64,000 nt of DNA from Candidatus Bathyarchaeota archaeon. GTDB lineage: Archaea; Thermoproteota; Bathyarchaeia; TCS64. This document shows positions 26,008-39,602 of the stretch, piece by piece. The stretch lies in assembly GCA_026014875.1 (NCBI GenBank), contig JAOZHO010000033.1, positions 13,256 through 77,255 on the forward strand, given 5' to 3'. Within the stretch, counting starts at the first letter, position 1. Every line of letters begins with the position of its first letter. A model generated the notes under the pieces. That model did no database searches. It worked only from the letters and a program-made list of their open reading frames with translations, and was not told where the DNA came from. The position numbers and the translations under genes were made by a program.

Positions 26008-26062
26008 CAGGGTTGGATCGTATCTATTATTAGTCCGGTGTTCTCTAGGGTTTGGCGAGTGT

Positions 26063-26138
26063 GCCTCGGTAGCTCAGTGGCCAGAGCGGCAGCCTCGTAA
26101 GTTGTTGGCCGCGGGTTCGACTCCCGCCCGGGGCTCCA
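26063..26138 (+). tRNA. tRNA-Thr (anticodon CGT), CCA encoded
   Basis: GCCTCGGTAGCTCAGTGGCCAGAGCG GCAGC CTCGTAA GTTGT ... GCGGGTTCGACTCCCGC CCGGGGC T CCA. The anticodon stem has two G-U pairs. Confidence 0.75.
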
Positions 26139-26245
26139 TTTCATGCGGCTGGCTTAGGATAGCGGTTTCGGGGCCGGTGGGTTGATGGATGGTGGTGTGA
26201 TGCGGGTGTTTCACCCCCCTCCCCGTCTTGTTTGTGGTGTCGGAG

Positions 26246-26311
26246 GGGTTGTTTTTGGTGTTGTTTTTGTGTTTGGGTTGTTTTTTGGGGTTGTTTTGGG
26301 TGTGTGTTGGT
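26246..26311 (+). repeat. 66-nt tract composed only of G and T, with four G3-4 runs
   Basis: Direct reading of the sequence: GGGGTTGTTTTTGGTGTTGTTTTTGTGTTTGGGTTGTTTTTTGGGGTTGTTTTGGGTGTGTGTTGGT. Confidence 0.6.
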
Positions 26312-26422
26312 ATTGTTTAGCTACTGTTCAGCTACTGGATTGCTTGTGTGTTAGATTGGTTGCGCGGTGAAAGATGGAGTCAGTGCTGGTTGGACTCCGC
26401 TTGCGGTCGAGTTCTGGCCTTG

Positions 26423-26438
26423 CCTGGGGCTCCCTTTC
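26423..26438 (+). repeat. degenerate copy (14/16) of the tRNA-Thr 3' end
   Basis: cctggggctccctttc versus the tRNA 3' end cccggggctccatttc. Confidence 0.45.
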
Positions 26439-26460
26439 TACTAGTCTCGGGGGATTGGTG

Positions 26461-27435
26461 TTAGTCTCCGGGTCTGATCTCGGACCTCAGGAACTTCATG
26501 TAGGAGGCGGAGAAGCAGATGACCAGGCCCACCACGAGGGTCGCGATGTTGGCCCAGTTGGCTGCGAGAGCCTCGGTCAGCGTCAGTGTCCTCTGGAACT
26601 CCTGGAATCCCATGCCCTTCATGAAACCCCCGGCTACGCCGAGGATGTCGGTTGCCGCCTCCTCGTAGAGATTCGTCGGTGATATTTTCTCGATGTTAGA
26701 CTGGAGCGCACTTCTCTTCTCCATAGCCTCCATGAACTCGGGGGACATCCTTAACTCCCCCAGGTCTCCCAGGCCTCCATGAACTCCCGTCCTGAATCCC
26801 CCTCCCGGGAGGGGCACCATGGAGCTCGCGACGACGCTCGCCAGTATGCTGATGATGATCGAGAAGATCAGCCAGGTGGCTATCGAGGCCATGATCGAGG
26901 TGTTGGTCCGCTTCGTCAGGACGGAGTACAGAATCCCTAGGCTCAACCAGAACACCAGGTAGACGATGGTCAGCAGGGCTAGGGCCAATATCTTCGTGAC
27001 CTCCCCCAGAGTGGGGCCGAAGCCCAGCATGGGGATCGCCAAGCCGGAGAGAATCCCTATGGTGCCCACCGCAAGGGTCGACAAGGCTGCGGCTCCCGCG
27101 AGGAATTTCCCGTTGATCACCGAGTCTCTGTAGATGGGCTGGCCCATCAGTATGGACAGGGTTCCATTTGCCCGCTCTTTGTTTATAGCGTCGAAGCCGA
27201 GGGCAAGCCCCAGCAGGGGACCGAAGAAGACCATGATCTGGATGAAGGAGAAGCCGAACTGCCCTCCTGAGAAGATGTTGACGAAGCCTGCGTTCTCGTT
27301 GTTCCTGATAAAGTCTACGCCTTGATAGGCGGTGAGTGTCGAGAGGAGCAGAACCACGGCGAACAGGATGAGGAATCGCTTGCTCCCGAACTGGTCTCTG
27401 AGCTCCTTCGCCGCAACGGTGAATGTTCCGGCCAT
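26461..27435 (-). CDS. ABC-2-type transporter permease
   Basis: Six TM helices with typical ABC-2 topology. It is operonic with the ATPase. Confidence 0.7.
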   Translation of the reverse strand: MAGTFTVAAKELRDQFGSKRFLILFAVVLLLSTLTAYQGVDFIRNNENAGFVNIFSGGQFGFSFIQIMVFFGPLLGLALGFDAINKERANGTLSILMGQPIYRDSVINGKFLAGAAALSTLAVGTIGILSGLAIPMLGFGPTLGEVTKILALALLTIVYLVFWLSLGILYSVLTKRTNTSIMASIATWLIFSIIISILASVVASSMVPLPGGGFRTGVHGGLGDLGELRMSPEFMEAMEKRSALQSNIEKISPTNLYEEAATDILGVAGGFMKGMGFQEFQRTLTLTEALAANWANIATLVVGLVICFSASYMKFLRSEIRPGD

Positions 27436-27437
27436 CT

Positions 27438-28373
27438 CTATCCCTCCTCGTAGTACTTCATGAAGATCTCCTCCAGGGAGTACTCCTTGGGCCTCATCAG
27501 CAGGATCACTGCGCCGTTCTCCGTTATCGTCTTGGACACCTCGTAGTCGCTCTCGATTCCTCCATAAACGAAGAGCTGATCTTTCTCTTGGGTCACCGAT
27601 TTGACGCCCTCGATGGACTCTAGGTCCCCGACGAGCCCCGGGGGCACCTCGGAGAGCATGAACTCGACGTTCCTCTCCTCGCCTCCGGTCATCTCCTTGG
27701 TCAGGTTCTCCAGAGTCTCCATTACGATGAGCTTCCCATTGTTGATGATGCCGACCCGGTCGCAGGTCATCTGGACCTCGTTGAGCAGGTGGGAGATAAG
27801 CACGACTGTGAGACCCTGCTCCCTGTTGAGACGGATTATCAGCTCCCGCACCTCCTTGGTGCCCACGGGGTCGAGGCCCAGGGTGGGCTCATCCAGGAAG
27901 ACGATTTTGGGCTGCTTGATCAGGGCCGCGGCTATCCCGACCCGCTGCCTCATCCCCCGGGAGAATTTCTCGTACTTCTCGTCTGCCCATTCGGACATCC
28001 CCACGATCTCCAGCATCTCCCCGATCCTCTCCTCCCGCACATCTTTCGTGAGGTCGTTGAGCTTCCCGATGTAATCCAGGTTCTGGGCTGCCGTAAGCTC
28101 CCCGTAGAGGCTGCTATACTCGGGGAGGATGCTTGCGACGGTTCTGACCTCCCTTGAACTCTCGATGATATCATAGCCTGCGACGACGCCCGTGCCCGTG
28201 GTGGGCACCGAGAGCCCCATGAGCATCAGTATGGCGGTGGTCTTCCCAGCCCCGTTTGGGCCGAGGAAGCCGTAGATCTCTCCCTCCTCCACGACCATGT
28301 CCAGGGAGTCAACAGCGGTAAAATCCCCGTATCTCTTCGTCAGACCGAAGGTCTCTATCACGTTTTCAACCAT
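27438..28373 (-). CDS. ABC transporter ATP-binding protein
   Basis: Walker A GPNGAGKTT. Signature LSRGMRQR. Walker B IVFLDEPT. The start was placed at MVENVIETFGL, where GGAG sits 8 nt upstream. Confidence 0.85.
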   Translation of the reverse strand: MVENVIETFGLTKRYGDFTAVDSLDMVVEEGEIYGFLGPNGAGKTTAILMLMGLSVPTTGTGVVAGYDIIESSREVRTVASILPEYSSLYGELTAAQNLDYIGKLNDLTKDVREERIGEMLEIVGMSEWADEKYEKFSRGMRQRVGIAAALIKQPKIVFLDEPTLGLDPVGTKEVRELIIRLNREQGLTVVLISHLLNEVQMTCDRVGIINNGKLIVMETLENLTKEMTGGEERNVEFMLSEVPPGLVGDLESIEGVKSVTQEKDQLFVYGGIESDYEVSKTITENGAVILLMRPKEYSLEEIFMKYYEEG

Positions 28374-28378
28374 TTTTT

Positions 28379-30490
28379 CTATCTCCTCTTGAATTTCGTG
28401 AAGCCTATCGCGAGGCCGATCACTACTATTATCGCGAGCCCGATGCCGAGGAAGCCCCACGACGTGGACGCATTCGCTGTGACCCTGAGGTCGGCCTCCG
28501 CCGACTCCGCCTGGTCGCTCAGGGCCTGCACCGTGACGATGTAGTCCCCCGCCACGGTGTCGGACGGCGTCTCCGCCGATATGGTGAAAGTTGTCGAGGC
28601 CTTTGGGCCCAGAGAAGCCAGCTGGGAGGGGGTCACCGTTATATCCCAGTCCGCGGGGACGGTCGTCTCGAGGTATAGGGATGTCAGGGGGGAGAGACCC
28701 GCGTTGGTGACCTCGACGCTGAACTCCACCGAGTCCCCGATGGTTATCGTGGTGTAGAGCGTCGAGAGCTCGAGCTCAACATCGTGGGAGCCCACGACGG
28801 TGGCTTTGAGCTCGATCTCCTTGGATAGCGTCCCCTCCGCCGACTCGACCTGGATCACCAGGATATAATCGCCGGTCTCGACGTTGCTCGGAGGCTCCAC
28901 CACTAGGCTAAGATCCTGATAGTCATCCGCCGGAATGTAGAAGCTGGAGACCTTGATGCTCTCCGACTTGAAGACGGCGTCCCAGTTGTCCGGGGCCGAG
29001 ACTACCTTCATTGTGAACTGGTCTTTGCTCTCCCCCATGTTCCAGACTCGTAGGGGATACGTGATGGAGCTCCCCGCCTGAACCGTGACATCCGTGAAGG
29101 TGCCCACGATCTCGATGTCGCTGAAGGACTCCCTCAGGCGGACACCCAGGGCGAGGCTGTCCCCCACGCTCCCCCCCTCGGACTCCACGAGCACCACGAG
29201 GGTGTAACTCCCGGGCTCGTAGTCATCCGGGGGGGTCACCTCGAAGACAAGGCTTGAATATGAACCAGCAGAGATGAGGAGGCTGGAGACCTCCACGGTA
29301 TCGGACCTGAACACGGCGTCCCAGTCCTCGGGGGCTGAGAGAACCGTGAGTATGAACAGGTCGTCGTTGTCCCCCTTGTTCCGGATGGTGAGGGGATAGT
29401 TGATAGCGTTCCCGGCCTCGACTGTCACATCGGTGTACGCGCTCAGGAGCTCCACCTCTCCCTCGGCCTCCTTGAGGCTCACCCTCAACACCAGAGAGCC
29501 CCGCAGCGCTCCTTCCTCAGAGACGGCTCGAATCTCCATCTCATACTCACCAACCAAAGCGGTGATGGCGGGCTCGACCTCAAGGGTGAGAGCCTCAGAA
29601 TCACCGGATTCGAGGAATAGACTACGGATCTCTATGCCGCCCCCCGTGACGAACCTCGTCTCCCATCCCTCGGGGACATCCATATAGAGCTCGACGGTCT
29701 CATCGGAGTCGCCCGTATTAGTGACGGTGACGGGGAAGCTGATGGTTCTCCCCAGCTCCCCGATGATGTAGGGATACGCGGAGGCAAGCGCCGTCTCTGG
29801 CTGGGATGCCTGAGAAGGCTGAATCGTGAACTCCAGAGTGGCGTTCAGGCTGCCGATGACGGTGAGGCTCACGGTCTCTGCCTCAGCCGCGGTCTCCGGA
29901 ACATCCACCTCCAGCGTGAGGCTCAGGCTCCCCGAGTTCAGCTGGGCCCTCCCGATCTCCCCCGTGGAGTCGAGGACCCGGGCCTCCCAGCCCTCCAGAC
30001 TGGCCACGCCGAACTCGATCACCTCGGGCTCGTCCAGGATGCTCACCGTGAAGGGGAAGCTCGCCGTGTCCCCCGGGGAGACGACCCTGCTTAGAACGGA
30101 GGCGGTGAGCCTCAGGTTTTGGAGGAGGACGATCTCCCCCATCTTCACGGGGTCGTTCTCGTCGTCGAAGAACAGCCCGGCGGGCACGTTGATGCCGGTC
30201 TGCTCCCCAGAATATCCGTCCTTCTCGAAGTGGATGGTGTACTGGCCGGTGTCCACGAGGGCGAACCTGAAGTATCCTTCCTCATCGGTGTACTGGGTGG
30301 CCTCGAGGCTTCCCGAGTTCGAGTACGCCATCACCTTGACATCGGTGAGGGGGGCTCCATTCTCATCCAGTACTGTCCCGTGGACATTCCCGGAGCCTGC
30401 CGGGGGAGCGTATACCCAGGCTCCCATCGTCGATGCTAGGACGAGGGAGATCAGGATCATTGTTAGCGTTCCATTCCTCTTGTTAATCAT
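28379..30490 (-). CDS. cell-surface protein (COG1470-like). N-terminal CarboxypepD_reg-like domain, tandem ~95-aa repeats, C-terminal TM anchor
   Basis: Signal peptide. HGTVLDENGAPLTDVKVMAY. Repeated SAPxxWDAVF(R/K)S units. The C-terminus is WGFLGIGLAIIVVIGLAIGFTKFKRR. Confidence 0.7.
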   Translation of the reverse strand: MINKRNGTLTMILISLVLASTMGAWVYAPPAGSGNVHGTVLDENGAPLTDVKVMAYSNSGSLEATQYTDEEGYFRFALVDTGQYTIHFEKDGYSGEQTGINVPAGLFFDDENDPVKMGEIVLLQNLRLTASVLSRVVSPGDTASFPFTVSILDEPEVIEFGVASLEGWEARVLDSTGEIGRAQLNSGSLSLTLEVDVPETAAEAETVSLTVIGSLNATLEFTIQPSQASQPETALASAYPYIIGELGRTISFPVTVTNTGDSDETVELYMDVPEGWETRFVTGGGIEIRSLFLESGDSEALTLEVEPAITALVGEYEMEIRAVSEEGALRGSLVLRVSLKEAEGEVELLSAYTDVTVEAGNAINYPLTIRNKGDNDDLFILTVLSAPEDWDAVFRSDTVEVSSLLISAGSYSSLVFEVTPPDDYEPGSYTLVVLVESEGGSVGDSLALGVRLRESFSDIEIVGTFTDVTVQAGSSITYPLRVWNMGESKDQFTMKVVSAPDNWDAVFKSESIKVSSFYIPADDYQDLSLVVEPPSNVETGDYILVIQVESAEGTLSKEIELKATVVGSHDVELELSTLYTTITIGDSVEFSVEVTNAGLSPLTSLYLETTVPADWDITVTPSQLASLGPKASTTFTISAETPSDTVAGDYIVTVQALSDQAESAEADLRVTANASTSWGFLGIGLAIIVVIGLAIGFTKFKRR

Positions 30491-30534
30491 TACGTCACCT
30501 CGAGTTCAGAGACTTCCATAAGTTTTGCTAATTA

Positions 30535-30586
30535 AACCATTTTTCAGAATCATACCATAATCTACCCCTAATCCTCCTGGCGTCAA
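30535..30586. promoter_or_regulatory. upstream motif catttttcagaatc...cccctaatc, shared with 31090-31130
   Basis: The same 15-mer and 9-mer appear in the upstream regions of two consecutive minus-strand genes. Confidence 0.35.
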
Positions 30587-31056
30587 CCCCGCTTGGACCT
30601 CCCGGCCATTCCCTCCATCAGCTCATCCATCTTCTCGGTGACGTGATCCAGGAGGCCCTGCGACGAGGCGCCCTGGTCGATCAACCCCTGGAGCTCGGGC
30701 TCCAGCCCCTCGATGAATTCGAGCATGGGGGCCATCCGCTCCGCAAAGACTTCCTCTGTCTCGTTGAGCATCGCCTCCATCTGATCCGTCATGTTAACAA
30801 CGAACTCTAGGAGTTCCTCGGGCTCGGCGCTCGCGTTAACAAGTGCCTGGAGCTCGTGGATGACCCCCTGGAAGAAGCCGTCCCTCTCCCCCATGGGTCT
30901 ATCACCATCAGGCGGGAAGGGCCTCTGCTCGTCCTCATGGATCGGCAGTTCCTCCTCCGTTTGCGGAGAGACATTGTTGACCTGGCCCAGATACGCCCAG
31001 CCACCCACCAAGACGAATAGGACCAAGGCTATCGGGATGACCACATTAAGCCTCAA
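30583..31056 (-). CDS. hypothetical membrane-anchored acidic protein
   Basis: N-terminal TM helix followed by an E/L-rich helical region. Confidence 0.45.
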   Translation of the reverse strand: MRLNVVIPIALVLFVLVGGWAYLGQVNNVSPQTEEELPIHEDEQRPFPPDGDRPMGERDGFFQGVIHELQALVNASAEPEELLEFVVNMTDQMEAMLNETEEVFAERMAPMLEFIEGLEPELQGLIDQGASSQGLLDHVTEKMDELMEGMAGRSKRG

Positions 31057-31196
31057 TTCTGCTCAAGGGTCCCTGAGTCCGAGATGATTAAAAATCATTT
31101 TTCAGAATCTCCCCCTAATCATTACAGAATCTTGAGCCCCTGGAATCATTTAATACGATATCCGTGATACCTGAACTGAGATTTCCACCAAGGTAT

Positions 31197-31526
31197 ATGC
31201 CGATGTCTGCCCGGGACCGAACCTACAGGTACCTCCTCCAGTGGCTGATAGGGGGCACCAGGGGCGGCGTGAACCGGGGCCGCATCATCAACGCCCTCAG
31301 AGAGCAGCCCATGAACGCGAACCAGCTGGGAAAACTTCTAGAGCTCGACTACAGGACCATCAGGCACCACCTGGAAGCCCTGGAGAAGCACAAGCTCCTC
31401 GCCTCGATGGGGGACCGCTACGGCAAGATGTACTTCGTCTCCATGGAGCTCGAGGAGCACCTCGACGTTTTTGATGAGATTTGGGTGGAAATTGGAAAAA
31501 GGTTGAAAAAGGAGGATAATGAGTGA
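31197..31526 (+). CDS. winged-helix transcriptional regulator
   Basis: GGTRGGVNRGRIINALREQPMNANQLGKLLELDYRTIRHHLEALEKHKLL. Confidence 0.55.
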   Translation: MPMSARDRTYRYLLQWLIGGTRGGVNRGRIINALREQPMNANQLGKLLELDYRTIRHHLEALEKHKLLASMGDRYGKMYFVSMELEEHLDVFDEIWVEIGKRLKKEDNE

Positions 31527-31960
31527 GACTGAGAATGAGGAATAGGCCCCGTGCAGCCCTGACGCTCCTAGCGATCATGCTGGTCAGCGTATCGTCCGTC
31601 TGGGTCGCCCACGGGGAGTTCTCCAAGGGAGACTGGGATTTTGACATGCACGAGCTGGAGCGGCTCAGGGACGAGCTGCCCAGAGTCCTCACCATCAAGA
31701 TGGCCTTCACCACCCTCACATCGATCCTCCTCATCGGGCTCATCGTGGTACACGTCAGAGTCTATCGCGAGACGGGGACCCGGTTCAGCCTGGGGCTAGT
31801 AATCTTCTCAGTGGCCCTCATCCTCTACACCCTCGCCTCTAACCCGATGCTCCACAGGCTCGTGGGCTTCAGGAGGATCGGTCTGGGCCCCCTGCTGATG
31901 CTCCCTGACCTCTTCATGGTCGTCGCAGCAGCCATACTCCTCTACCTCAGCAGACAGTAA
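31523..31960 (+). CDS. hypothetical integral membrane protein, coupled to the upstream regulator
   Basis: Three TM helices. The start overlaps the regulator stop. Confidence 0.5.
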   Translation: MRLRMRNRPRAALTLLAIMLVSVSSVWVAHGEFSKGDWDFDMHELERLRDELPRVLTIKMAFTTLTSILLIGLIVVHVRVYRETGTRFSLGLVIFSVALILYTLASNPMLHRLVGFRRIGLGPLLMLPDLFMVVAAAILLYLSRQ

Positions 31961-31963
31961 ACC

Positions 31964-31980
31964 CCGCCCGGGGCTCCATC
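31964..31980 (+). repeat. exact 17-nt copy of the tRNA-Thr 3' end (cccgcccggggctccat)
   Basis: Direct match to 26120-26136. It begins 4 nt after the TAA of the preceding gene. Confidence 0.55.
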
Positions 31981-32053
31981 ATCGGTGCGGGAGCCGTGTA
32001 TGTAGTGATCGGACCCGTACACGGGTTCATTATCTACTGGGCTCCTAACGAAA

Positions 32054-32434
32054 ATGGGTGGTGTTTTGGATCCGTTTTTGAGGGGTTTCAACGAGAGTTT
32101 GATGGACACTAATCTATCGGAGATCGAGGTTCAGAATCTGAAGGGGATAACGGCGATCTTCAGTAAAGAGATCAAATCGAAGCTTGATGCCCAGTTCGGT
32201 TTCATACTGGGTTTTTCGTATGCGAAGTTCCTGATGCAATTCCTCATTCTCAAGAATAGTATGCCCACGAAGGAGGAGACGAAAGAGTTCTTCGAGCTTC
32301 TGAAGAGGCGCCACCCTGAGATTGTCTCGATCCTGAGGGATGTGAGGGTCGCCGATATCGTTGAACGGAACGAGTCTGTTGCATCCTTCGAAGAACATGA
32401 AGTAGAACCGGATAGCGAGGACCCAACCTTCTAA
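32054..32434 (+). CDS. hypothetical protein
   Basis: ORF in a lower-GC stretch. No family was recognised. Confidence 0.35.
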   Translation: MGGVLDPFLRGFNESLMDTNLSEIEVQNLKGITAIFSKEIKSKLDAQFGFILGFSYAKFLMQFLILKNSMPTKEETKEFFELLKRRHPEIVSILRDVRVADIVERNESVASFEEHEVEPDSEDPTF

Positions 32435-32481
32435 CATCGCGCGCGATCAGTAAAACGCCTACCAGAAAACCTATCTCAACG

Positions 32482-33012
32482 ATGGGGGGAGGTTATCCCA
32501 TGTTAGAGAAAATTCTGGATGAGGTGAACGAGGCCAACAGGAGCCGGAAGACAATCTCCAAGATGGAGTTGGGAGAGATCGACCAGTTCCTGGTTCACTC
32601 CAGGGTGGGGAGGATCGGCATATCCCTTGATGATAACCCCTACGTTGTTCCCGTCGGCTACTGCTACGAGGGCGGTGAGATTTTCTTCCATTCCTGCTTC
32701 AGCGGGCTGAAGATGAGGAGCATGGCACGAAACCCCAAAGTCTGCTTCCTGGTCGACGAGTCCCTCTCGGACGGCTCCATGTACAAGAGCGTGATAGTCA
32801 GGGGGTCCGTGGAGATCATCGATGACGGGGAGAGGATGCTGCCGTACCTGCAGAGCCTCATTAACAAGTACAGGGTCCCCGTGGGCTTCGACGAGTACAT
32901 CGGCAGGCCAGGGCGGAGCAGGGAGAAGGAGATGGCGGTAGTCCGAGTATGTGTGATCACCCCGAGTGAGATCACCAGTAGGAAGATGGTGCGCGCGCTT
33001 ACGCGCGCGTGA
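32482..33012 (+). CDS. pyridoxamine 5'-phosphate oxidase-family (FMN-binding split-barrel) protein
   Basis: GRIGISLDDNPYVVPVGYCYEGGEIFFHS...CFLVDE is a PNPOx-like pattern. Confidence 0.65.
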   Translation: MGGGYPMLEKILDEVNEANRSRKTISKMELGEIDQFLVHSRVGRIGISLDDNPYVVPVGYCYEGGEIFFHSCFSGLKMRSMARNPKVCFLVDESLSDGSMYKSVIVRGSVEIIDDGERMLPYLQSLINKYRVPVGFDEYIGRPGRSREKEMAVVRVCVITPSEITSRKMVRALTRA

Positions 33013-33061
33013 AAAGGCTGATGGAGAATAAATTTATCTTATTACAGGTTATGTTCCGTCT

Positions 33062-33790
33062 ATGATCGACTACAATAAAATATCTGGGCATTACACACAA
33101 CACCGCCAAAAGGTACATCCAGGGATATTGAAGGAACTCCTATCCGGATCTGAATATCAAAACAATTCGACTGTTCTCGAAGTGGGCTGCGGAACAGCGA
33201 ATTACATCATCGAAATACAATCCCTCACAGGAAGCAGATGCTGGGGCATAGACCCATCAGAAAAAATGCTATCAGTGGCCAGAGAAAGGTCAAAAACAAT
33301 AGATTTTAAAAATGGCAGAGGAGAGCAACTGGATTTCTCAAATGATTTCTTCGATTTCATATTCTCCGTAGATGTGATCCATCACGTGGAAGGTCATCTA
33401 GAATACTTTCAAGAGGCTTTTCGGACGTTAAAACCGGGAAATCGAATTTGTACCGTTACGGATTCCGAGTGGACACTCAGCAATCGGGTACCCCTGGCAA
33501 CTCACTTCCCAGAGACCGTTGAGGTCGAATTGGCCAGATATCCTAGGATTCATTATTTAACCGGGCTGATGAGGGAAGCGGGATTCACGGACATTCAGGA
33601 TAAACTCGTAGAGTTCTCATTCCACATGAAGGATATTCAGGCATTTCGAGATAGAGCATATAGTTCATTACACCTGATTTCAGAAGAAGCGTTTCAGAGA
33701 GGAATCACTCGATTGGAGGACGAATTAGATGAAAAAGGGTATATTCAAAATATTTCCAGATACACGCTTCTATGGGGAAGAAAAAATTAA
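33062..33790 (+). CDS. class I SAM-dependent methyltransferase
   Basis: SAM motif VLEVGCGTANY and distal motif LKPGNRI. The GC content is markedly lower than in the surroundings. Confidence 0.8.
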   Translation: MIDYNKISGHYTQHRQKVHPGILKELLSGSEYQNNSTVLEVGCGTANYIIEIQSLTGSRCWGIDPSEKMLSVARERSKTIDFKNGRGEQLDFSNDFFDFIFSVDVIHHVEGHLEYFQEAFRTLKPGNRICTVTDSEWTLSNRVPLATHFPETVEVELARYPRIHYLTGLMREAGFTDIQDKLVEFSFHMKDIQAFRDRAYSSLHLISEEAFQRGITRLEDELDEKGYIQNISRYTLLWGRKN

Positions 33791-33973
33791 AATCGCGCGC
33801 GCCTGTTCTGGAAATCGTGTGTGAGGAAAATAAAATTTTACCACTGAGAGGCAGGCGGAGTGCCTCCGCTCCTGTAGAGAGGGGAAGCCGTCTAATCCCC
33901 CTTTTTCTAGAGGGCAGCCTAAGGAGGGAATAACTCTTGTCTGGAAGTGGAGCGCGGGCCTTCCTTTATGCGT

Positions 33974-34792
33974 TCATTCACTCCTCGGCTCACTGAGGGG
34001 GACGCTGAGGCTTTCAAACCCTTTGACGAAGTCGGACATCCAGGCCACCACATCCTCCAACAGCGTCTCCGCGAACTCGGGAGTTATCTTGGAGTAGTCG
34101 CTGGTGCCTGGCACGTCGTCGGGGTGGGCCTCCGTCATGGAGCCGGTCTCAGATACGTCGACGGTGCTCAGCGGTATCCTAACGAGACCGTCTTTGAACC
34201 TCGCGAGCCCCGATCTGACAAGCTGGATCTCATCATCCACCTGCCTCGTCGGCGTCAACACCGCCCGGTCCATCCTCACAGCCTCGGGCCTCGACGCCAG
34301 CATGAGGGCGGTCTCGGCGTAACCTGCGTGCTCCTCGGCGGGGTGCCCGTGTATGGACCTGCTTCGCAGTATGTCCCACCACTGGACGACGGCGCAGAGG
34401 GTCCCCATGTCCTCCCGGGCCTCCTTGATGGCGCCGGTGATGGCGCCGAGGTTCCCCCCATGACCGTTCATGAAGACCACCCGATCTATTCCATAGCGGT
34501 CAAGGCTCTCGATGATCTCGTAGACCACCTCCTGGAGGGTCTCCGGGGCGAGAGTTATCGTCCCGGGGAACTCCTTATGGTGGCCCGAGACGCCGTATGG
34601 CATGACAGGCAGCACCAGAGCGCCCGTCCTCTCCCCAACCTTCCTCGCGATGTTCCAGGCCTGGATCCAGTCCGCCCCGACCCCTAGGTGAAGCCCGTGC
34701 TGCTCTGTCGCGCCTATCGGCACGATGGCGAGCCTCGTCTCACCGAACTTCTCCTCGGCCTCCGGCCAGGTCATATTAGATAGCTCGAACAT
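33974..34792 (-). CDS. creatininase-family amidohydrolase (archaeal ArfB-like)
   Basis: LAIVPIGATEQHGLHLGVGADW...NGHGGN is the creatininase fold signature. Confidence 0.75.
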   Translation of the reverse strand: MFELSNMTWPEAEEKFGETRLAIVPIGATEQHGLHLGVGADWIQAWNIARKVGERTGALVLPVMPYGVSGHHKEFPGTITLAPETLQEVVYEIIESLDRYGIDRVVFMNGHGGNLGAITGAIKEAREDMGTLCAVVQWWDILRSRSIHGHPAEEHAGYAETALMLASRPEAVRMDRAVLTPTRQVDDEIQLVRSGLARFKDGLVRIPLSTVDVSETGSMTEAHPDDVPGTSDYSKITPEFAETLLEDVVAWMSDFVKGFESLSVPLSEPRSE

Positions 34793-34905
34793 GATTTACT
34801 CCTCTTAAGAAGAGGACAATATGTCGAATAATAATGTGTGAGGTGTAAAGTGCCTTTGTCCCACGTACGCCTGTTAACGGACGCCTAAAGTCACGCTGGT
34901 AACTA

Positions 34906-35090
34906 GATGTCCAGCGTCTTCCCCGGGTTCTCGTTCACCATCATCCCGATCTCACCGTCGCTGATGCCGTTCTCCCTCATCACACGAATGAATATCCGTA
35001 GCCCCTCAGGCGACGGATTGTGCACCTAACCCAAGCCCGTGGCCTGGTCCAAGAAAGCGATGGTGGGCAGCTCATATCCGGCGGTGACTA
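34906..35090 (-). pseudogene. frameshifted C-terminal remnant of an amidohydrolase-superfamily gene
   Basis: The minus strand reads ...ITLVTAGYELPTIAFLDQATGLG. After a frame shift it reads VHNPSPEGLRIFIRVMRENGISDGEIGMMVNENPGKTLDI*. There is no upstream start. Confidence 0.3.
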
Positions 35091-35149
35091 AGGTGATGCT
35101 GGACGTTCTAAGGGACGGTGGGTGATGAAGTTTAACCCAAAGAGGTTAC

Positions 35150-35188
35150 AGGTACTTTTCAATCTCAAGTTGGAAACCCGCCCGGCGC
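35150..35188 (+). repeat. 36-nt intergenic repeat, copy C
   Basis: ggtacttttcaatctcaagttggaaacccgcccggcgcg. Confidence 0.55.
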
Positions 35189-35312
35189 GCGTTTCAGTTT
35201 ACATGTCTTTAATGGTTCTTTTACGTGTATCAGATGCCGAATTCGCAGTGAACTCTGAACGTGCGCGGGTGAGAAAGTGAATTAAATGAACTGGACTTGT
35301 GTTTGATCGTCT

Positions 35313-36857
35313 ATGAGAGGCGATAATAATGGGTTTTTCGGGGTTTGTGCAGTCCTGACTCTATTACTCGTCTCGTCGTCTCTCCCGTTCCTGAGCTGGG
35401 GGGCATCCGCCTCCGACCTGGATGAGAGAATCCAGAGGGTTGAGAATGGGTTATACGAACGCTCTTGGGAGGGTCTGCCTATCGGAGAAAAGTTGACGCT
35501 CGCGGAACGCATGGAATATTACAAAGTCCCAGGGGTCAGCATCGCCGTCATCAATGATTTTCAAATTGAATGGGCCAAGGGCTATGGCGTTCTAGAAACT
35601 GGAGGAAATCAGCCCGTAACCCCCGACACTCTTTTCCAAGCGGCTTCCATCAGCAAACCCGTTACTGCTGCGGCAGCCCTGCACTTTGTGGAACAGGGTC
35701 TCCTTGACCTCGACGAAAACGTCAACGATAAGCTAGTTTCTTGGAAAGTGCCTGAGAATGAGTTGACAGAACAGGAAAAGGTTACGCTTCGCCGTCTACT
35801 AAGCCACACCGCAGGAACTAGTGTCCACGGATTCAGAGGGTACGCATATAATGAGGAGATTCCCACCCTCCAGCAGATACTTGATGGGGAGCCGCCGGCC
35901 GATAATCCACCAATTCGCGTCGACATGGTTCCAGGGACTAAATGGCGGTACTCGGGTGGCGGCATCACGATCGTGCAACAGCTGCTCAAGGATATTATAG
36001 GCAAACCCTTTCCTGATATCATGCAGGAAGCAGTCCTCGAGCCAACAGGAATGATGGCTAGCACATTTAAACAGCCACTCCCTGAGGACCGCAGAGCTAC
36101 AGCAGCCACTGCGCACAATATCAATGGTGGGCCCCTCGGGGGAAAATGGCATATCTACCCTGAGATGGCGGCAGCGGGACTATGGACAACCGCTTCTGAT
36201 CTCGCACGCTTCGGCATCGAGATGATGCTTTCCTACCGTGGAGAATCGAATAAAATTCTCTCCGAGGAGATGGTGGAAGCAATGCTTTCTCCTCAGGTCG
36301 AGGGGTTCATGGGATTGGGATTTACGACACAAGGCGAAGGCCTAGATCATTGGTTTGGGCATGTCGGGGGTAATGAGGGATTTAGATGCATCATATTGGC
36401 CTATCCAGAACGAGGGTATGGCATTGTGGTGATGACAAATGGGGATGCAGGCGATTCGCTTTACAACGAGATTCTGATGAGCGTAGAGTTAGAATATAGC
36501 TTGTTCAACACAGACATGACGATATATGTGAAGGATAACGAGGGCAAGGCTATCAGTGGCGCTTCTGTGACCTCCATCTCCCAGCCGGAGGGTCAAGAGA
36601 CGCTGAGAGGCGCCACGGACTCCGATGGTTGTATGATCTTCACGAATGTGAGGCAGGGCGACTACGCGATCCAGGCGAGCAAGAGCGGATACACGACGGA
36701 TAAGGGAACATTGAACGCCATAATAGAGGAGACAGCTGAGTTAACCATCCTCCTCGAGAAGGAAGCGAAAGGCATCCCCGGCTTCCCTTACGAGTCAATC
36801 ATACTCGGGATAGTGATGGTGACCTTCCTGTTATGGGGGATGAGAAGAAGAACGTAG
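35313..36857 (+). CDS. beta-lactamase-family serine hydrolase with C-terminal CarboxypepD_reg-like domain and PGF-CTERM sorting signal
   Basis: Signal peptide. SxxK motif SISK. Domain DGCMIFTNVRQGDY. The C-terminus is GIPGFPYESIILGIVMVTFLLWGMRRRT. Confidence 0.8.
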   Translation: MRGDNNGFFGVCAVLTLLLVSSSLPFLSWGASASDLDERIQRVENGLYERSWEGLPIGEKLTLAERMEYYKVPGVSIAVINDFQIEWAKGYGVLETGGNQPVTPDTLFQAASISKPVTAAAALHFVEQGLLDLDENVNDKLVSWKVPENELTEQEKVTLRRLLSHTAGTSVHGFRGYAYNEEIPTLQQILDGEPPADNPPIRVDMVPGTKWRYSGGGITIVQQLLKDIIGKPFPDIMQEAVLEPTGMMASTFKQPLPEDRRATAATAHNINGGPLGGKWHIYPEMAAAGLWTTASDLARFGIEMMLSYRGESNKILSEEMVEAMLSPQVEGFMGLGFTTQGEGLDHWFGHVGGNEGFRCIILAYPERGYGIVVMTNGDAGDSLYNEILMSVELEYSLFNTDMTIYVKDNEGKAISGASVTSISQPEGQETLRGATDSDGCMIFTNVRQGDYAIQASKSGYTTDKGTLNAIIEETAELTILLEKEAKGIPGFPYESIILGIVMVTFLLWGMRRRT

Positions 36858-36867
36858 AGTGCGCACG

Positions 36868-36910
36868 CAGTGCTTTTCTGCCTCAAGTTAGTAGCCCGCC
36901 CGGGGTTTCC
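36868..36910 (+). repeat. 36-nt intergenic repeat, copy A
   Basis: cagtgcttttctgcctcaagttagtagcccgcccggggtttcc. It lies 11 nt after the lactamase stop. Confidence 0.55.
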
Positions 36911-37171
36911 GGTCGTCTTGACCTTAGCGTCGCTCATTCCTATCACCAACTGTGCTATCCACGCTGCGTATGCGCTCGCGGATGTGAAAGTGTACGCGCG
37001 CGCATGAAGAATGTATAAATTATTGCCCTCAAATTTATGATCTATTCTCTAGCGCGCAGTTTATATCATGCTTCTCGCTTGGCGTGTTATATCATGAGAA
37101 AAATAAAAAAAACAACTTGAAACTCGATTCGATCTATAAACTCCTGGCCGCCTCTCGGCGTCTGAGCTTAT

Positions 37172-37294
37172 CTAGAACCTTCTTGGCGGCCTGTGCTTAG
37201 CAAAGCACTCACGGCAGTAAACCGGCCTGCCCTCTGTTGGCTTGAAGGGGACTTCCGCCTCCTTCCCGCAATCAGAGCAGATGACCTTGGTCAT
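37172..37294 (-). CDS. small zinc-ribbon protein (CxxC-x17-CxxC)
   Basis: MTKVICSDCGKEAEVPFKPTEGRPVYCRECFAKHRPPRRF. Confidence 0.45.
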   Translation of the reverse strand: MTKVICSDCGKEAEVPFKPTEGRPVYCRECFAKHRPPRRF

Positions 37295-37453
37295 CTCACG
37301 CGGGCCGCGGTCTGATCCACCGCGCCTATCTCTATAACCCAATACTTTCACTCCTATTCTGTGTGTATGCTCAGAACGCCTCACGGTGTTCTCCGCACAC
37401 TGCCCACGCATGGGCGATTCTCCCTTTTAAATCATTGCGCACGCGCGCGGGGG

Positions 37454-38260
37454 TCACTTGGTCGCTTTGACGCTGTACATGAGGGGGAGGTCGTATCCGG
37501 GGAGTCTGCTGTAGCCGTCCTCCCCTGGCTCCATGAAGGCAAACTGAGTGTCGTCGACGCTGAAGGGGTACTCCCCGAGCTCCCGGATAGTGAGGCCGGC
37601 GCCGATGAGGGCGTTAACCACCTCGCTCATGGGATGGGCCCATTCATAGGAGCCCTTGTTTTCCACCTTCGCGTCGGGATCAGCGTAGGAGCCCTCTGCC
37701 TCGTAGTAGTCGGGCTCCTTTCCCTGCCAGTAGCGGTACTTGACCTTGAGCTCCGAGGGAAACTCGTAGTCGAAGACCCACATGAACGGGTGGAATTCGG
37801 CCATGAAGAAGGTGCCCCCGGGTCTGAGGTAGCGGGAGACGATATCCGCCCACGCCTCCATGTCGTGGAGCCAGCAAAGGACCCCGTAGCTGGTGAAGAC
37901 GACGTCGAACTTTCCGTCGAGATGTTTGGGGAAATCGTAGACGTTGCTGCAGATGAACTCGGCATCTACGCCGATCCTTGCGGCGAGGCTCCTAGCGAGC
38001 TCGATGGCGGTTTCGCTGAAGTCGACCCCGGTGACCCGGGCTCCGAGGCGCCCCCAACTCAGCGTGTCCAGGCCGAAGTGGCACTGGAGATGGAGAAGGG
38101 ACTTCCCTGAGACGTCCCCCAGGGCCTCGAGCTCGATACTGTGGAGGCTGTTCTTACCGGCGATGAACCCATCCAGATCGTACTCGTCCGACTTTACGTG
38201 GATGCCGACCAGCTCGTTCCAACGCCGCTTGTTCACGGTGTAGTACTTCTCCATGGACAC
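37454..38260 (-). CDS. class I SAM-dependent methyltransferase (paralog 1)
   Basis: SAM-binding VTGVDFSETAIELA. It is roughly 85 percent identical to the 45150..45950 product. Confidence 0.8.
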   Translation of the reverse strand: MSMEKYYTVNKRRWNELVGIHVKSDEYDLDGFIAGKNSLHSIELEALGDVSGKSLLHLQCHFGLDTLSWGRLGARVTGVDFSETAIELARSLAARIGVDAEFICSNVYDFPKHLDGKFDVVFTSYGVLCWLHDMEAWADIVSRYLRPGGTFFMAEFHPFMWVFDYEFPSELKVKYRYWQGKEPDYYEAEGSYADPDAKVENKGSYEWAHPMSEVVNALIGAGLTIRELGEYPFSVDDTQFAFMEPGEDGYSRLPGYDLPLMYSVKATK

Positions 38261-38380
38261 CCCTCTTCCGAGTTGATACGCTATCTGACTTCGACCTTAT
38301 TAATCGGGATGTATTGAGAAACGAGCCGCGCGCGCAGGTAAATGAGATGCAATAAAACGCGCGCGTTCCCAAAATGTCAT

Positions 38381-38424
38381 AGGTGCTTTTCTACCTCAAG
38401 TTGAAAGCCCGCCCGAGGCTCCAT
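38381..38424 (+). repeat. 36-nt intergenic repeat, copy B. It ends with a 16/17 copy of the tRNA-Thr 3' end
   Basis: aggtgcttttctacctcaagttgaaagcccgcccgaggctccat. Confidence 0.55.
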
Positions 38425-38572
38425 AATCAGTGAGCATCCGGATTAGGCGTACTTATGCACGGTAGAATAGGATTAGGAACTCAAGATCACGGGCCTCGAG
38501 ACGGGCACGTCGAAAAAGGTTTTAAAATGGGGGCAATGGATAACGCCACGTGACGAACTCGGGGGTTGCTGC

Positions 38573-39580
38573 TTGCTAGATCTGGACGCACTGAAGAAGG
38601 GAGGAATCTCCGTCCAGGAGGCGGAGAACATCCTGTCCCTCGACGGCCTCCCCCAGACCATACTGGACATCGCAGGCTCTCTCAGGGATGAACGCCTCGG
38701 GCGGGAGCTCCGGTTCCACATCCCCCAGCCCCGGTTCCCCAGCGTCTCAGTCACCGGCGCCAAGTGCGCCCTGAGATGCGAGCACTGCGGAGGCCACTTC
38801 CTCACCGGGATGGAGAACACCGACACCCCGGAGAAGCTCAAAGGCTTCTGCTCCAGGCTCGACGCCGAGGGAGGAGTCGGAGTCCTCGTGAGCGGCGGCT
38901 CGGACCCCCGGGGCCGTGTCCCCCTCGAAGGATTCCTCGACGCAATCACATGGGTGAAGGAGAACACCTCACTCATAGTCAACCTCCACACCGGGCTCCT
39001 GGACCCCCGGCAAGCGGAGGCCATAGCCTCCACCGGGGCCGACATTGTCTCCACGGACGTCGTGGGGAGCGACGACACCATCAAACGGGTCTACGGGCTG
39101 GACGCAACCGTCGAAGACTACGCCGAGACCCTGATCAATCTGAGAGACGCCCGGGCGCCCCACATCGTCCCCCACGTCTGCGCAGGGCTGGACTTCGGGG
39201 AGATCAAGGGAGAGGCCAGAGCCCTGGAGATCATGAAGGACATCGACCCCGAGACCATCGTCATCCTCGCCCTGATCCCGACGAAGGGGACGGGCATGGA
39301 GGACGTGACGCCCCCCTCCGTCGAGGCAATCGCCAAGACAGTGGCCGCGGCGAGGCTGATGCACGGCGACGCCAGCGTCGCCATGGGGTGCATGCGCCCC
39401 AGAACCGAGAAGCCCCTGGGGGAGAGGCTCGCACTCATGGCCGGCGCCGACAGGATCGTCCTCCCCTCCAGATCCACGGTGGAGTACGCCCTCAGAGAAG
39501 GATTCACTGTGAAGCACCTGGACGGCTGCTGCGCCATACCCAAAGGGCTAGAACACCTCGCCCTGAGGGATGAGCCCTAG
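38573..39580 (+). CDS. radical SAM protein, LipS-type (BioB-like) lipoyl synthase component
   Basis: CxxxCxxC motif (CALRCEHC). It flanks a lipoate-protein ligase gene. The start is TTG. Confidence 0.6.
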   Translation: MLDLDALKKGGISVQEAENILSLDGLPQTILDIAGSLRDERLGRELRFHIPQPRFPSVSVTGAKCALRCEHCGGHFLTGMENTDTPEKLKGFCSRLDAEGGVGVLVSGGSDPRGRVPLEGFLDAITWVKENTSLIVNLHTGLLDPRQAEAIASTGADIVSTDVVGSDDTIKRVYGLDATVEDYAETLINLRDARAPHIVPHVCAGLDFGEIKGEARALEIMKDIDPETIVILALIPTKGTGMEDVTPPSVEAIAKTVAAARLMHGDASVAMGCMRPRTEKPLGERLALMAGADRIVLPSRSTVEYALREGFTVKHLDGCCAIPKGLEHLALRDEP

Positions 39581-39602
39581 CAGCTAGGCGAAGCGACTCC
39601 AT

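Follow-up and report, generated by a model that had tools for sequence, protein, structure and literature searches.

The question raised by this locus is how the DNA between a tRNA-Thr gene and the radical-SAM genes downstream of it came to lie there. We analyzed a 64-kb stretch of the contig (the window) together with related loci, which are cited by number where they must be told apart. A preliminary description of the window had proposed serial integration at the tRNA gene.

Repeats of the tRNA-Thr 3' end

26063 to 26138, + strand: tRNA-Thr(CGT), anchor, attB-like (ARAGORN; Rfam, 65.6 bits; CCA encoded)
26419 to 26438, + strand: degenerate copy of the core, with a gamma arm of its own upstream (~26395 to 26418); 13/17 over the core
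31963 to 31979, + strand: core copy 2, exact 17-mer (17-mer search; shuffle test)
35152 to 35191, + strand: alpha arm a and a core cut short after CCCGCCCGG by GCGCGCG (repeat family D2)
36870 to 36905, + strand: alpha arm b and the first 11 nt of the core (repeat family D2)
38383 to 38424, + strand: alpha arm c and core copy 3 (16/17), outermost attR-like junction (repeat family D2)

ARAGORN and Rfam both confirm the end of tRNA-Thr(CGT) at 26138, and the CoA-transferase-tRNA-Thr(CGT) synteny is kept in ~30 Bathyarchaeia loci. The 17-nt core CCCGCCCGGGGCTCCAT (26123 to 26139) is the last 16 nt of tRNA-Thr plus 1 downstream nt, which comprises the T-stem 3' strand, the acceptor 3' strand, the discriminator, CCA, and one extra base. 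The exact recurrence of this 17-mer in the preliminary description is real, but its coordinates were 1 nt off, and it begins 2 nt (rather than 4 nt) past the stop codon, the TAA of a 145-aa ORF. Core copy 3 (38408 to 38424) has the single mismatch (G to A) that was reported. At ≤1 mismatch, three core matches are observed versus 0.00 expected from 100 dinucleotide-preserving shuffles, and no further 17-mer copies were found elsewhere in the 64-kb window. At ≤3 mismatches, there are three matches with 1.11 expected, which is not unusual and would fit a chance or genome-wide motif unconnected with the tRNA. However, across ~70 related loci the motif is confined to tRNA-Thr genes and cassette junctions. 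This distribution and the shuffle test refute the common, unrelated motif that the preliminary description had allowed for, and we give it virtually no credence.

The 14/16 copy reported at 26423 to 26438 (CCTGGGGCTCCCTTTC versus CCCGGGGCTCCATTTC) is correct as written, and is at chance level when taken alone. It is positionally homologous to L021 11711 to 11727 (16/17), which itself follows a homologous spacer, and has a second homologue at L055 2113 to 2129. The partial copies reported at 35177 to 35185 (9 nt) and 36895 to 36905 (11 nt) are present, and they are not due to chance, because they and the copy at 38408 are ends of a 36-nt direct-repeat family (D2) whose copies are 78 to 100% identical. 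By these comparisons, the weaker copies at 26419 to 26438, 35177, and 36895 are genuine homologous sites.

A 25-nt upstream alpha arm is common to the copies at 35152, 36870, and 38383. Alpha arm plus core is also present in L057 (twice), L051, and L068, in which the counterpart of arm b continues into a full core. When aligned with the last 46 nt of the tRNA, arm plus core matches at 13 of 29 upstream positions (45%) in addition to the 17-nt core, and it resembles a tRNA-Thr 3' half that has diverged, which would be expected for attR/attP junctions. One other explanation for this likeness is that the repeats are decayed in situ tRNA-Thr paralogs, e.g., of tRNA-Thr(TGT), and thus duplication remnants rather than integration junctions, with the variability arising by ordinary homologous or illegitimate recombination. 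This is consistent with the presence in eight relatives of a tRNA-Thr(TGT) gene 2 to 9 kb downstream of tRNA-Thr(CGT), with the fact that 7/8 of these genes end in CCCGCCCGAGGCTCCA, which is identical to the 17-nt copy 3 minus its last nt, and with the TGT anticodon of the tRNA that heads the orthologous array in L051. However, neither ARAGORN nor Rfam (E up to 10) detects a tRNA-like signal at any repeat copy, and the alpha arms are 78 to 97% identical to each other, far above their likeness to any tRNA. The copies also move with cassettes to a non-tRNA context (L068), lie on both sides of a unit that is permuted or circular (L067), and delimit an insertion (L049), and we consider an origin from in situ paralogs improbable.

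An empty site and differently filled relatives

38425 to 39580, + strand: native right flank, radical-SAM/BATS promoter and gene (59 nt past the tRNA in L047)

In the Bathyarchaeia locus L047, the gene order is helicase-AIRS-CoA-transferase-tRNA-Thr(CGT)-59 nt-radical-SAM-LplA-radical-SAM, so that the tRNA is 59 nt from a radical-SAM promoter that is 12.4 kb away in the window. L047 5871 to 9911 and 9971 to 12955 align with window 22097 to 26136 and 38510 to 41509. Because L047 is an empty site, we conclude that 26139 to 38407 is an insertion bounded by repeats, and the earlier proposal that 26.1 to 38.4 kb is acquired DNA between the tRNA and the last repeat holds. L051, a metagenome contig with ~92% nucleotide identity, covers the tRNA-to-radical-SAM interval in 3.9 kb and lacks window 26351 to 31992, 32448 to 33814, and 34965 to 38486. 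L049 carries an additional 1.5 kb at core copy 2, inserted between positions 31976 and 31993 of the window and comprising a 447-aa ORF and a degenerate arm and core. In L051, L055, and L057, the cassettes ahead of the shared hyp126 gene are different ones, which terminate in arm plus core. From these alignments, the ~12.3 kb 3' of tRNA-Thr is a hypervariable island that is missing in one relative and has other fillings elsewhere. Instead of the two or three large segments first envisaged, the island contains at least five core-bounded units, which are subdivided into single-gene cassettes.

Our preferred reading, to which we assign a probability of roughly 60%, is that the tRNA-Thr 3' end is an attachment (att) site and that the island grew through successive site-specific insertions of small circular cassettes. 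The expectation that polymorphisms end at the repeats is borne out by L049, L051/L055/L057, and L067, but not by L046/L051 (34925-34964/38487-38490) or L060 (31959/38498), in which the indel borders are off any core. These indel borders, and the many cassette borders off cores, count against the att-site reading.

The spacer and module A

26140 to 26418, + strand: G/T-rich noncoding spacer (blastn to relatives)
26461 to 31960, no strand assigned: module A, six genes (Pfam)

The spacer follows a core in four differing contexts and is 78 to 85% identical to the post-tRNA sequence of L021 and L051 and to the sequence after a cassette core in L055. Module A encodes an ABC-2 permease, an ABC ATPase, a NEW3/CARDB surface protein, a 157-aa protein, an ArsR-type HTH protein, and a DUF8036 membrane protein. 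It is missing from L047 and L051, and its six genes recur in L060 to L065 as a conserved operon that elsewhere has neither tRNA nor core. Its GC3 is 0.76 to 0.82, which is host-like, and the earlier designation of this ABC/COG1470 surface module as an acquired segment is not supported in that form. No attP-like arm was found on module A; this, its codon usage, and its occurrence elsewhere without a core count against the att-site reading.

Single-gene cassettes

32054 to 32434, + strand: hyp126, conserved 126-aa gene (directly 3' of a core in many loci)
32482 to 33012, + strand: PNPOx-like cassette (Pfam)
33062 to 33790, + strand: methyltransferase cassette, GC3 0.42, then (CG)4.5 at 33794 to 33802 (Pfam)
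33974 to 34792, - strand: creatininase-family gene, GC3 0.82 (Pfam)
35313 to 36857, + strand: beta-lactamase-family serine hydrolase, PGF-CTERM-like tail (Pfam; C-terminus inspection)
37172 to 37294, - strand: small treble-clef zinc-finger gene (six-frame Pfam scan, zf_Tbcl_2, 3.1e-19)
37454 to 38260, - strand: methyltransferase, 268 aa (Pfam)

hyp126, which has no Pfam or PHROG match, is present in ten metagenome loci, and five different units precede it among loci, all of which terminate in a core or in what is left of one. The 3' end of the PNPOx-like cassette merges into GCGCGCGC-TTA-CGCGCGCG (32991 to 33009). Homology to L051 starts again at 33815, past the methyltransferase cassette, and in both L046 and L051 the creatininase gene with its upstream region to 34925-34964 adjoins the radical-SAM promoter (blastn). 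The zinc-finger gene, also carried by L067, has (CG)n at 36995 to 37003 and 37052 to 37057 (upstream in window coordinates), and the 268-aa methyltransferase is bordered by (CG)4 at 37442 to 37449 and (CG)n at 38327 to 38335 and 38358 to 38365. The GC and codon-usage check gives a mosaic, with a GC3 of 0.42 to 0.84 among the cassettes versus 0.77 to 0.87 in the flanks; the mosaic composition behind the earlier "lower-GC module" is thus real, but it belongs to independent single-gene cassettes rather than to one module.

The beta-lactamase cassette is found in three further contexts. L067 is 99% identical over this unit and has the order C4-C3-C4, in which the beta-lactamase and methyltransferase units are permuted, with a hybrid c/a junction whose crossover is within CTCAAGTTG, inside the alpha arm. 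The first 114 nt of L067 are the same as its last 114 nt, a terminal repeat that fits both a circle and a tandem duplication of the permuted unit; this ambiguity counts against the att-site reading. In L068, the cassette is followed by an arm and full core in another genomic context that has no tRNA, and in L069/70 it ends at (GC)4, without arm or core. Judging from these placements, the beta-lactamase gene behaves as a mobile single-gene cassette.

A second junction type

32438 to 32445, no strand assigned: (CG)4 junction 3' of hyp126 (homology break among hyp126 loci)

(CG)4 (CGCGCGCG) has 7 occurrences in the window, all in 32438 to 38365, versus 1.2 expected, and GCGCGC occurs once in the remaining 58 kb. 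Past hyp126, homology stops at (CG)4 and gives way to at least five unrelated continuations. L050 (hyp126-(CG)4-attatgaag) and L057 (hyp126-(CG)4-0.55 kb PNPOx-(GC)4.5-attatgaag) form a clean empty/filled pair. (CG)n caps truncated genes at L055 869, L057 3015, and L045 24; the left border of the alpha unit is (CG)4; and 20% of homology breakpoints are ≤5 nt from (CG)n, compared with 2.9% of random positions. (CG)4 thus marks many insertions and truncations, and many cassette borders are at (CG)4, without tRNA-like sequence, rather than at tRNA-like repeats. This palindrome appears to be a second junction type that splits the array into single-gene units.

These observations, together with the (GC)4 end of the L069/70 cassette, also suit the alternative that recombination takes place mainly at (CG)4 rather than at the tRNA-like core, with single-gene cassettes swapped at this palindrome by a recombinase, a nuclease/ligation process, or a microhomology process. 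The arm-plus-core unit would then be one more small cassette, derived from an old tRNA-Thr att site. This leaves unaccounted for the anchoring at tRNA-Thr with an empty site, the exact 17-nt tRNA identity at 31963, the core insertion in L049, and the alpha-arm crossover in L067, and neither module A nor the G/T-rich spacer contains (CG)n. No enzyme for a (CG)4 site was found in this analysis, and we know of none that acts on a site of this type. We regard the alternative as possible but unlikely.

Search for a recombinase

No integrase, transposase, or fragment of one was detected in the island ORFs (Pfam), and a six-frame Pfam scan found none in the island intergenic DNA. The rest of the 64-kb window, the gene tables of syntenic loci, and the relatives' cassettes are likewise negative for integrases and transposases, in agreement with the preliminary description that the repeat interval has no integrase. 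SSV-type "suicidal" integrases split their own gene upon integration (PMC7253208); these systems are also archaeal and tRNA-targeted with direct repeats, and such partition could explain an apparently missing integrase. However, Int(N)/Int(C) fragments would be expected beside the att copies, and none were found in the island intergenic DNA (six-frame Pfam) or in the flanking ORFs.

Since the arm-plus-core pattern has no match in IMG/VR, no integrase-bearing donor element is known. This and the missing integrase count against the att-site reading. Because no cassette encodes a recombinase, it would have to act in trans.

Comparison with known systems

In archaea, integrated elements arrayed in tandem at tRNA genes ("gene capture") were reportedly described in Sulfolobus by She et al. 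In bacteria, CIMEs are integrase-less, att-flanked elements in ICE/IME accretion arrays, placed in tandem at a tRNA or another site. They are known from Firmicutes, where ICE partners have been identified, and their mobilization in trans by a related integrase has been proposed. The island units are likewise att-flanked, integrase-less, and in tandem at a tRNA, but they are much smaller, and no partner element or integrase was found.

Thaumarchaeal integrated elements have att sites with a median of 17 bp, 57% in tRNA genes, and those with tyrosine recombinases build arrays through re-use of one site (PMC6563490). The island resembles these arrays in its tRNA 3' target, direct tRNA-end repeats bounding inserts, short att core, array growth by site re-use, and empty site in a relative. 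In contrast, its units are 0.5 to 5.5 kb and are mostly single metabolic genes, many cargoes share a conserved 25-nt element-side arm, and junctions of a second, (CG)4, type are interspersed. An integrase is part of the definition of a cryptic integrated element (PMC6563490), whereas the island units have no integrase, replication gene, or viral gene.

The array could also be a classical integron remnant (CALIN) with attC hairpins worked on by an IntI integrase. Integrons and CALINs are reported for archaeal MAGs, Thermoproteota included (PMC9668308), and the island shares with them an integrase-less cluster of mostly single, promoter-poor metabolic genes, a recombination site at each cassette 3' end, docking at one fixed point in the chromosome, reordered and possibly circularized cassettes, and a recombinase outside the cassettes. 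However, no hairpin is conserved across the junction units (consensus fold of -5.7 kcal/mol, 0 covarying pairs), the R''/R' consensus (RYYYAAC/GTTRRRY) is unmatched in the alpha arms when their sequences are read directly, IntI was not found, and genes are present in both orientations. Docking is at a tRNA 3' end rather than at attI, and the recombination site is identical to that end, unlike attC. We consider a CALIN very improbable.

Proposed mechanism

The L047 empty site, the 3.9-kb version in L051, the significance of the core, the conserved arms, the L049 core insertion, the varied hyp126 neighbors, the mobility seen in L067/L068, the mosaic GC3, and the thaumarchaeal precedent largely support the view that a tRNA att site captured DNA serially by site-specific recombination. 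The hypervariable island would occupy the DNA between tRNA-Thr and the radical-SAM/lipoate-ligase genes. Each arm-plus-core cassette would end in an attP-like site of ~46 nt, the last 17 nt being identical to the tRNA, and recombination in or beside the core would place the cassette either at the tRNA or at any of the core copies already present, leaving an arm-plus-core attR-like junction in direct orientation. Excision, reordering, and loss would be possible through the same sites. The enzyme, probably with tyrosine-recombinase chemistry, would act in trans, encoded either at another genomic position or on a different element; the succession of events is likewise inferred. With its integrase-less single-gene cassettes and (CG)4 junctions, the island is an unusual, integron-like variant of such capture.

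Copies of the tRNA-Thr end

The island (26139 to 38407) lies directly 3' of the tRNA-Thr(CGT) gene, in which CCA is encoded (ARAGORN and Rfam), and it is bounded by direct repeats of the 3' portion of this tRNA, as is DNA inserted by a tRNA-targeting element. The repeated unit is a 17-mer, CCCGCCCGGGGCTCCAT, here called the core, made up of the 3' strands of the T-stem and of the acceptor, the discriminator, CCA, and one flanking base. The relevant features are the following.

26063 to 26138, tRNA-Thr(CGT) gene
26123 to 26139, core at the tRNA end
26423 to 26438, 14/16 copy of the tRNA end (partial core from 26419)
31963 to 31979, copy 2, exact
35152 to 35187, 36-nt repeat (arm a and a partial core from 35177)
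36870 to 36905, 36-nt repeat (arm b and a partial core from 36895)
38383 to 38418, 36-nt repeat (arm c, running into copy 3)
38408 to 38424, copy 3, with one G-to-A change

The window contains three matches to the core with at most 1 mismatch, versus 0.00 expected from 100 shuffles, and a repeat search places the three 36-nt repeats in a single family. Because the partial copies at 35177 and 36895 belong to the same family as copy 3, a 25-nt upstream arm (the alpha arm) is common to all three. The preliminary description had reported these copies from inspection: the exact recurrence is real, although it had been placed 1 nt off, the one-mismatch copy is confirmed, the 14/16 copy matches its description, and the short partial copies exist as members of the 36-nt family. 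No other tRNA-like sequence was found in 26 to 38.7 kb, even at an Rfam E value of ≤10. The copies could have been parts of a split or permuted archaeal tRNA gene, each supplying a 3' half able to pair with a 5' half through a complementary leader or a BHB motif. This was rejected, since no copy gives a tRNA-model match at E values up to 10 and the arms are without a T-stem 5' strand.

At the head of the orthologous array in the related locus L051 (positions 1 to 65, corresponding to window 26074 to 26139), the tRNA-Thr has a TGT anticodon, not CGT, with a compensating stem change and with the 3' end and downstream spacer as in the window. Both tRNA-Thr isoacceptors lie 2 to 9 kb apart in many more distant relatives; the window has no tRNA-Thr(TGT). 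The spacer is G/T rich, of low complexity, and noncoding (26140 to 26418; L021, 11537 to 11710; L051, 66 to 278; L055, 977 to 1069), and it ends in AGCTACTGTTCAGCTACTG. In all four places a core stands before it and a further, degenerate core terminates it; the terminal repeat of L021 is longer, at 27 nt, and takes in the T-loop. The spacer has no Rfam match.

An unoccupied site with conserved flanks

The CoA-transferase encoded upstream of the tRNA has its closest relatives in Bathyarchaeia MAGs (58 to 82% identity), and the order AIRS-like gene, CoA-transferase, tRNA-Thr(CGT) is kept in about 30 of those loci. None of the content of window 26.1 to 64 kb is found in the 10 kb that follow the tRNA in these loci; therefore, the loss of synteny coincides exactly with the tRNA. 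For the radical-SAM/BATS gene (38573), in the right flank of the island, homologs occur in three kinds of context. In one related locus, L047 (NCBI GCA_975851115.1), the order is helicase, AIRS, CoA-transferase, tRNA-Thr(CGT) (9838 to 9911), radical SAM, LplA, and radical SAM. By blastn, window 22097 to 26136 aligns with L047 5871 to 9911 and window 38510 to 41509 with L047 9971 to 12955, so 12.4 kb of the window is replaced by 59 nt in L047. This is an unoccupied site with both adjoining flanks, in which the radical-SAM promoter lies 59 nt after tRNA-Thr. Copy 3 sits 86 nt upstream of a conserved promoter box (cgaaaaaggttttaaaa), which is the expected place of the original tRNA end after insertions at the tRNA.

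The cassette methyltransferase gene (37454 to 38260) has a paralog of ~82% nucleotide identity at 45147 to 46003, in the conserved right flank (detected via L067 602 to 1460); therefore, cassette cargo may duplicate a resident gene, or the reverse.

Differences in gene content among relatives

Relatives were collected by a metagenome scan with hyp126, the 126-aa gene that follows copy 2, and by homolog look-ups for three island or flank proteins; the loci are 80 to 99% identical at the nucleotide level. L051 (92%) runs from the tRNA to the radical-SAM gene in 3.9 kb, in the order tRNA, spacer, SDR gene, arm plus degenerate core, hyp126, 359-aa gene, creatininase, and radical SAM, and it is without window 26351 to 31992, 32448 to 33814, and 34965 to 38486. 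In L049, core copy 2 is the site of an extra 1.5 kb (between window 31976 and 31993), made up of a 447-aa ORF and, after it, a degenerate arm and core. Upstream of hyp126, there is an aldo/keto reductase cassette in L055 and an uncharacterized unit in L057, both ending in arm plus core, and in L045 and L048 about 9 kb of different genes separates hyp126 from the radical-SAM gene. Alignment of relatives had been proposed as the check on the preliminary description, and presence/absence differences do fall at repeats in several cases, as seen in the empty L047, the insertion at copy 2 in L049, and the different cassette upstream of the core in L051. The units are mostly single-gene cassettes whose content differs between close relatives, as in integron and CALIN arrays.

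L014, a Bathyarchaeia MAG that is more distant, has tRNA-Thr(CGT) and, beyond a unit of 1.7 kb (11277 to 12992), an exact 16-nt repeat of the tRNA end. The unit carries genes for a winged-helix protein and for an HExxH protein of 387 aa, and none for an integrase. L003 has a similar copy with 1 mismatch 2.8 kb downstream of its tRNA.

Composition of the island and module A

GC3 of genes in the island and its flanks
Flanking genes: 0.77 to 0.87
Module A genes: 0.76 to 0.82
hyp126: 0.63
PNPOx: 0.81
Methyltransferase (242 aa): 0.42
Creatininase: 0.82
Beta-lactamase: 0.58
Methyltransferase (268 aa): 0.84

The preliminary description had recognized at least two or three acquired segments, one of them a single lower-GC module. 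The units of that module range in GC3 from 0.42 to 0.84, and it is therefore a patchwork whose units differ in origin; in place of two or three segments, there are many small units. Module A (26461 to 31960) is a conserved operon encoding an ABC-2 permease, an ATPase, a NEW3 surface protein, a 157-aa protein, ArsR, and DUF8036. It is also present in L063 to L065, where the surroundings differ and include neither a tRNA nor a core, and in L060 and L061 it is joined straight to the radical-SAM promoter. In these last two contigs, which are 89% identical, module A is followed (L060, 4195 to 4342; L061, 2501 to 2648) by the promoter and a radical-SAM gene cut down to about 100 nt, and then by unrelated DNA with transglutaminase-like genes. 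The 157-aa gene of module A is flanked by two short direct repeats in divergent promoter regions (30534 to 30562 and 31092 to 31120, 83%; 30484 to 30504 and 31116 to 31136, 76%).

The arm-plus-core site

Copies from the window (three), L057 (two), L068, L051, and L067 were aligned, giving an arm-plus-core consensus of ATAGGTGCTTTTCTACCTCAAGTTGRAAG-CCCGCCCGGGGCTCCAT. In an alignment to the 46-nt 3' end of the tRNA, matches are found at 13 of 29 upstream positions, mostly in the T-loop, and the 17-nt core then follows. In the attR of a tRNA-integrating element, the sequence upstream of the crossover comes from the element and can diverge, and the sequence downstream is identical to the tRNA; by its sequence, the arm-plus-core resembles what such a junction should look like. 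The alpha arm is kept at 35152, 36870, and 38383 and in L051, L057, and L068, as the element-side arm of an att site would be, and this conservation indicates that the junctions are att sites and not random scars. The consensus fold of six alpha units is weak, with 0 covarying pairs and no conserved stem. The arm-plus-core is without conserved secondary structure and so is not attC-like. An RNA element at the junctions was also considered and rejected, since Rfam at both gathering and E ≤10 thresholds returns only the tRNA. A search for a donor element with the alpha-arm-plus-core pattern gave 0 matches in IMG/VR.

(CG)4 junctions

A second type of junction is marked by CGCGCGCG, which occurs 7 times in the window, versus 1.2 expected, always within 32438 to 38365; GCGCGC occurs once in the other 58 kb (at 19400). 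The (CG)n motifs are located at gene ends and are rare in other Bathyarchaeia loci; their near-absence outside the array could reflect restriction avoidance. Downstream of hyp126, homology ends at (CG)n in eight loci and is followed by at least five unrelated sequences. L050 reads hyp126-(CG)4-attatgaag, whereas L057 reads hyp126-(CG)4-[0.55-kb PNPOx]-(GC)4.5-attatgaag, which is a clean empty/filled pair with the motif duplicated. Truncated gene fragments capped by (CG)n are present in L045, L055, L057, and L069. Homology breakpoints fall ≤5 nt from (CG)n in 20% of cases (n = 85, collapsed), versus 2.9% for random positions, a pairwise measure that is diluted by alignment fragmentation inside diverged genes and serves as supporting evidence only. 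The (CG)4 junction is a separate type and accounts for much of the single-gene turnover. We found no description in the literature of CGCGCGCG as a site of archaeal recombination.

Palindromes of (CG)3 to (CG)5.5 form nine clusters in 32438 to 38365 and occur also in L045 (1 to 8000), L052 to L058, and L067 to L070, at gene ends and homology breakpoints. Several are paired 12 to 50 nt apart (e.g., 32991/33002, 36995/37052, and 38327/38358).

Mobility of the beta-lactamase cassette

L067, a contig of 3,396 nt, has a 99% identical copy of the beta-lactamase unit (C3). Its first 114 nt are the same as its last 114 nt, and its order is C4 (zinc finger and methyltransferase), C3, and the start of C4. 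The C4-to-C3 junction of L067 is a hybrid, with arm c on the left and arm a plus a truncated core on the right, and the crossover lies in CTCAAGTTG. The contig fits either an excised 3.28-kb circle from recombination between sites a and c or a tandem duplication through the same sites. In L068 (81%), the beta-lactamase cassette has the arm and a full core in another genomic neighborhood, with no tRNA, and in L069 and L070 it is without the arm and ends at (GC)4. Recombination at the att sites appears to be ongoing in present-day populations.

Next to a (CG)3 motif in L069 (21 to 87) and L070 (632 to 698) lies a 67-nt piece from the 3' end of the ABC permease (window 26459 to 26525, inverted), and a DUF772 transposase-domain fragment lies upstream of the beta-lactamase cassette in L069 (396 to 779). 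The C terminus of the beta-lactamase-family protein (36780 to 36857) has a PGF motif, a hydrophobic helix, and RRRT, and is PGF-CTERM-like; a weak match to the exosortase/archaeosortase family is present at 14537 to 15142.

Search for a recombinase

Pfam detects no integrase or transposase in the island ORFs, and a six-frame Pfam scan of the island's intergenic DNA finds only a small treble-clef zinc-finger gene and no integrase. Pfam likewise gives no recombinase, PF00589-type or other, in window 1 to 18 kb and 56.7 to 63.3 kb, and no recombinase match in the cassettes of relatives. The gene tables of the syntenic L045 and L047, through which window 43 to 56 kb was judged, hold no integrase or transposase entries, the unannotated small ORFs have no PHROGs match, and none of the 25 most frequent families downstream of tRNA-Thr(CGT) in relatives (107 ORFs from 31 MAG loci) is a recombinase. 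The suggestion that the integrase has been lost or lies outside the window agrees with its absence from the regions scanned (island ORFs, intergenic DNA in six frames, and flanks).

Several candidates were rejected. An SSV-type partitioned integrase would leave Int(N) and Int(C) fragments abutting the direct repeats; none was found, the core-adjacent ORFs being DUF8036, hyp126, beta-lactamase, and methyltransferase, and the six-frame scan is negative. For the 387-aa cassette protein of L014, which contains an HExxH motif, no match to an integrase, to PHROG, or to PDB was obtained. The long ORFs on the minus strand of L051 and L055 are antisense artifacts of the SDR and aldo/keto-reductase genes, and the 328-aa gene adjoining hyp126 in relatives has no Pfam match and reads like a putative secreted hydrolase.

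Discussion

The data support capture of DNA at the tRNA-Thr 3' end through repeated recombination at copies of the tRNA end, with no integrase carried. This was the central idea of the preliminary description, and the repeats, the empty site in L047, and the relatives bear it out. Arrays of tyrosine-recombinase elements with short att sites at archaeal tRNA genes are a known precedent (PMC6563490), but the integrase gene beside an att site that marks such islands is not found here; a cryptic integrated element is likewise defined by an integrase that is missing here. Integrons and CALINs are a functional precedent (PMC9668308), and the island is like them in that most of its cassettes hold one gene and the set varies from one close relative to another. 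Unlike them, it has no attC, and no IntI or other tyrosine recombinase was found in the parts of the window scanned; GTTGAAA, GTTGGAA, and GTTAGTA do not fit the attC consensus (R'' RYYYAAC/R' GTTRRRY). We found nothing relevant in the literature on Bathyarchaeia integrons.

We tentatively propose, at a probability of about 0.3, that this Bathyarchaeia lineage has an undescribed integron-like gene-capture platform. The tRNA-Thr 3' end would be the docking site for integrase-less cassettes, and each single-gene cassette would have its own recombination site, which would be a pseudo-tRNA att site of 46 nt in some and a (CG)4 palindrome of 8 bp in others. A recombinase encoded elsewhere would insert, excise, and shuffle the cassettes; alternatively, a nuclease-plus-repair route may act at (CG)4, a sequence avoided in the rest of the genome.

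The uncultured Bathyarchaeia are abundant in sediments, and to our knowledge almost nothing is known of their mobile elements. Here, accessory metabolic and surface genes (hydrolases, methyltransferases, oxidoreductases, and the ABC/surface module) are gained, lost, and reordered at one tRNA gene between near-identical populations, with a recombinase in no cassette. GTGCTTTTCTACCTCAAGTTGRAAGCCCGCCCG and (CG)4 clusters at gene ends provide a search pattern for such arrays and their recombinase in other MAGs. If cassettes with tRNA-mimicking att sites, (CG)4, or both are moved in trans, the array would be analogous to integrons in function while relying on different sites, and the two junction motifs and the candidate circular form would give a handle on gene acquisition in these archaea.
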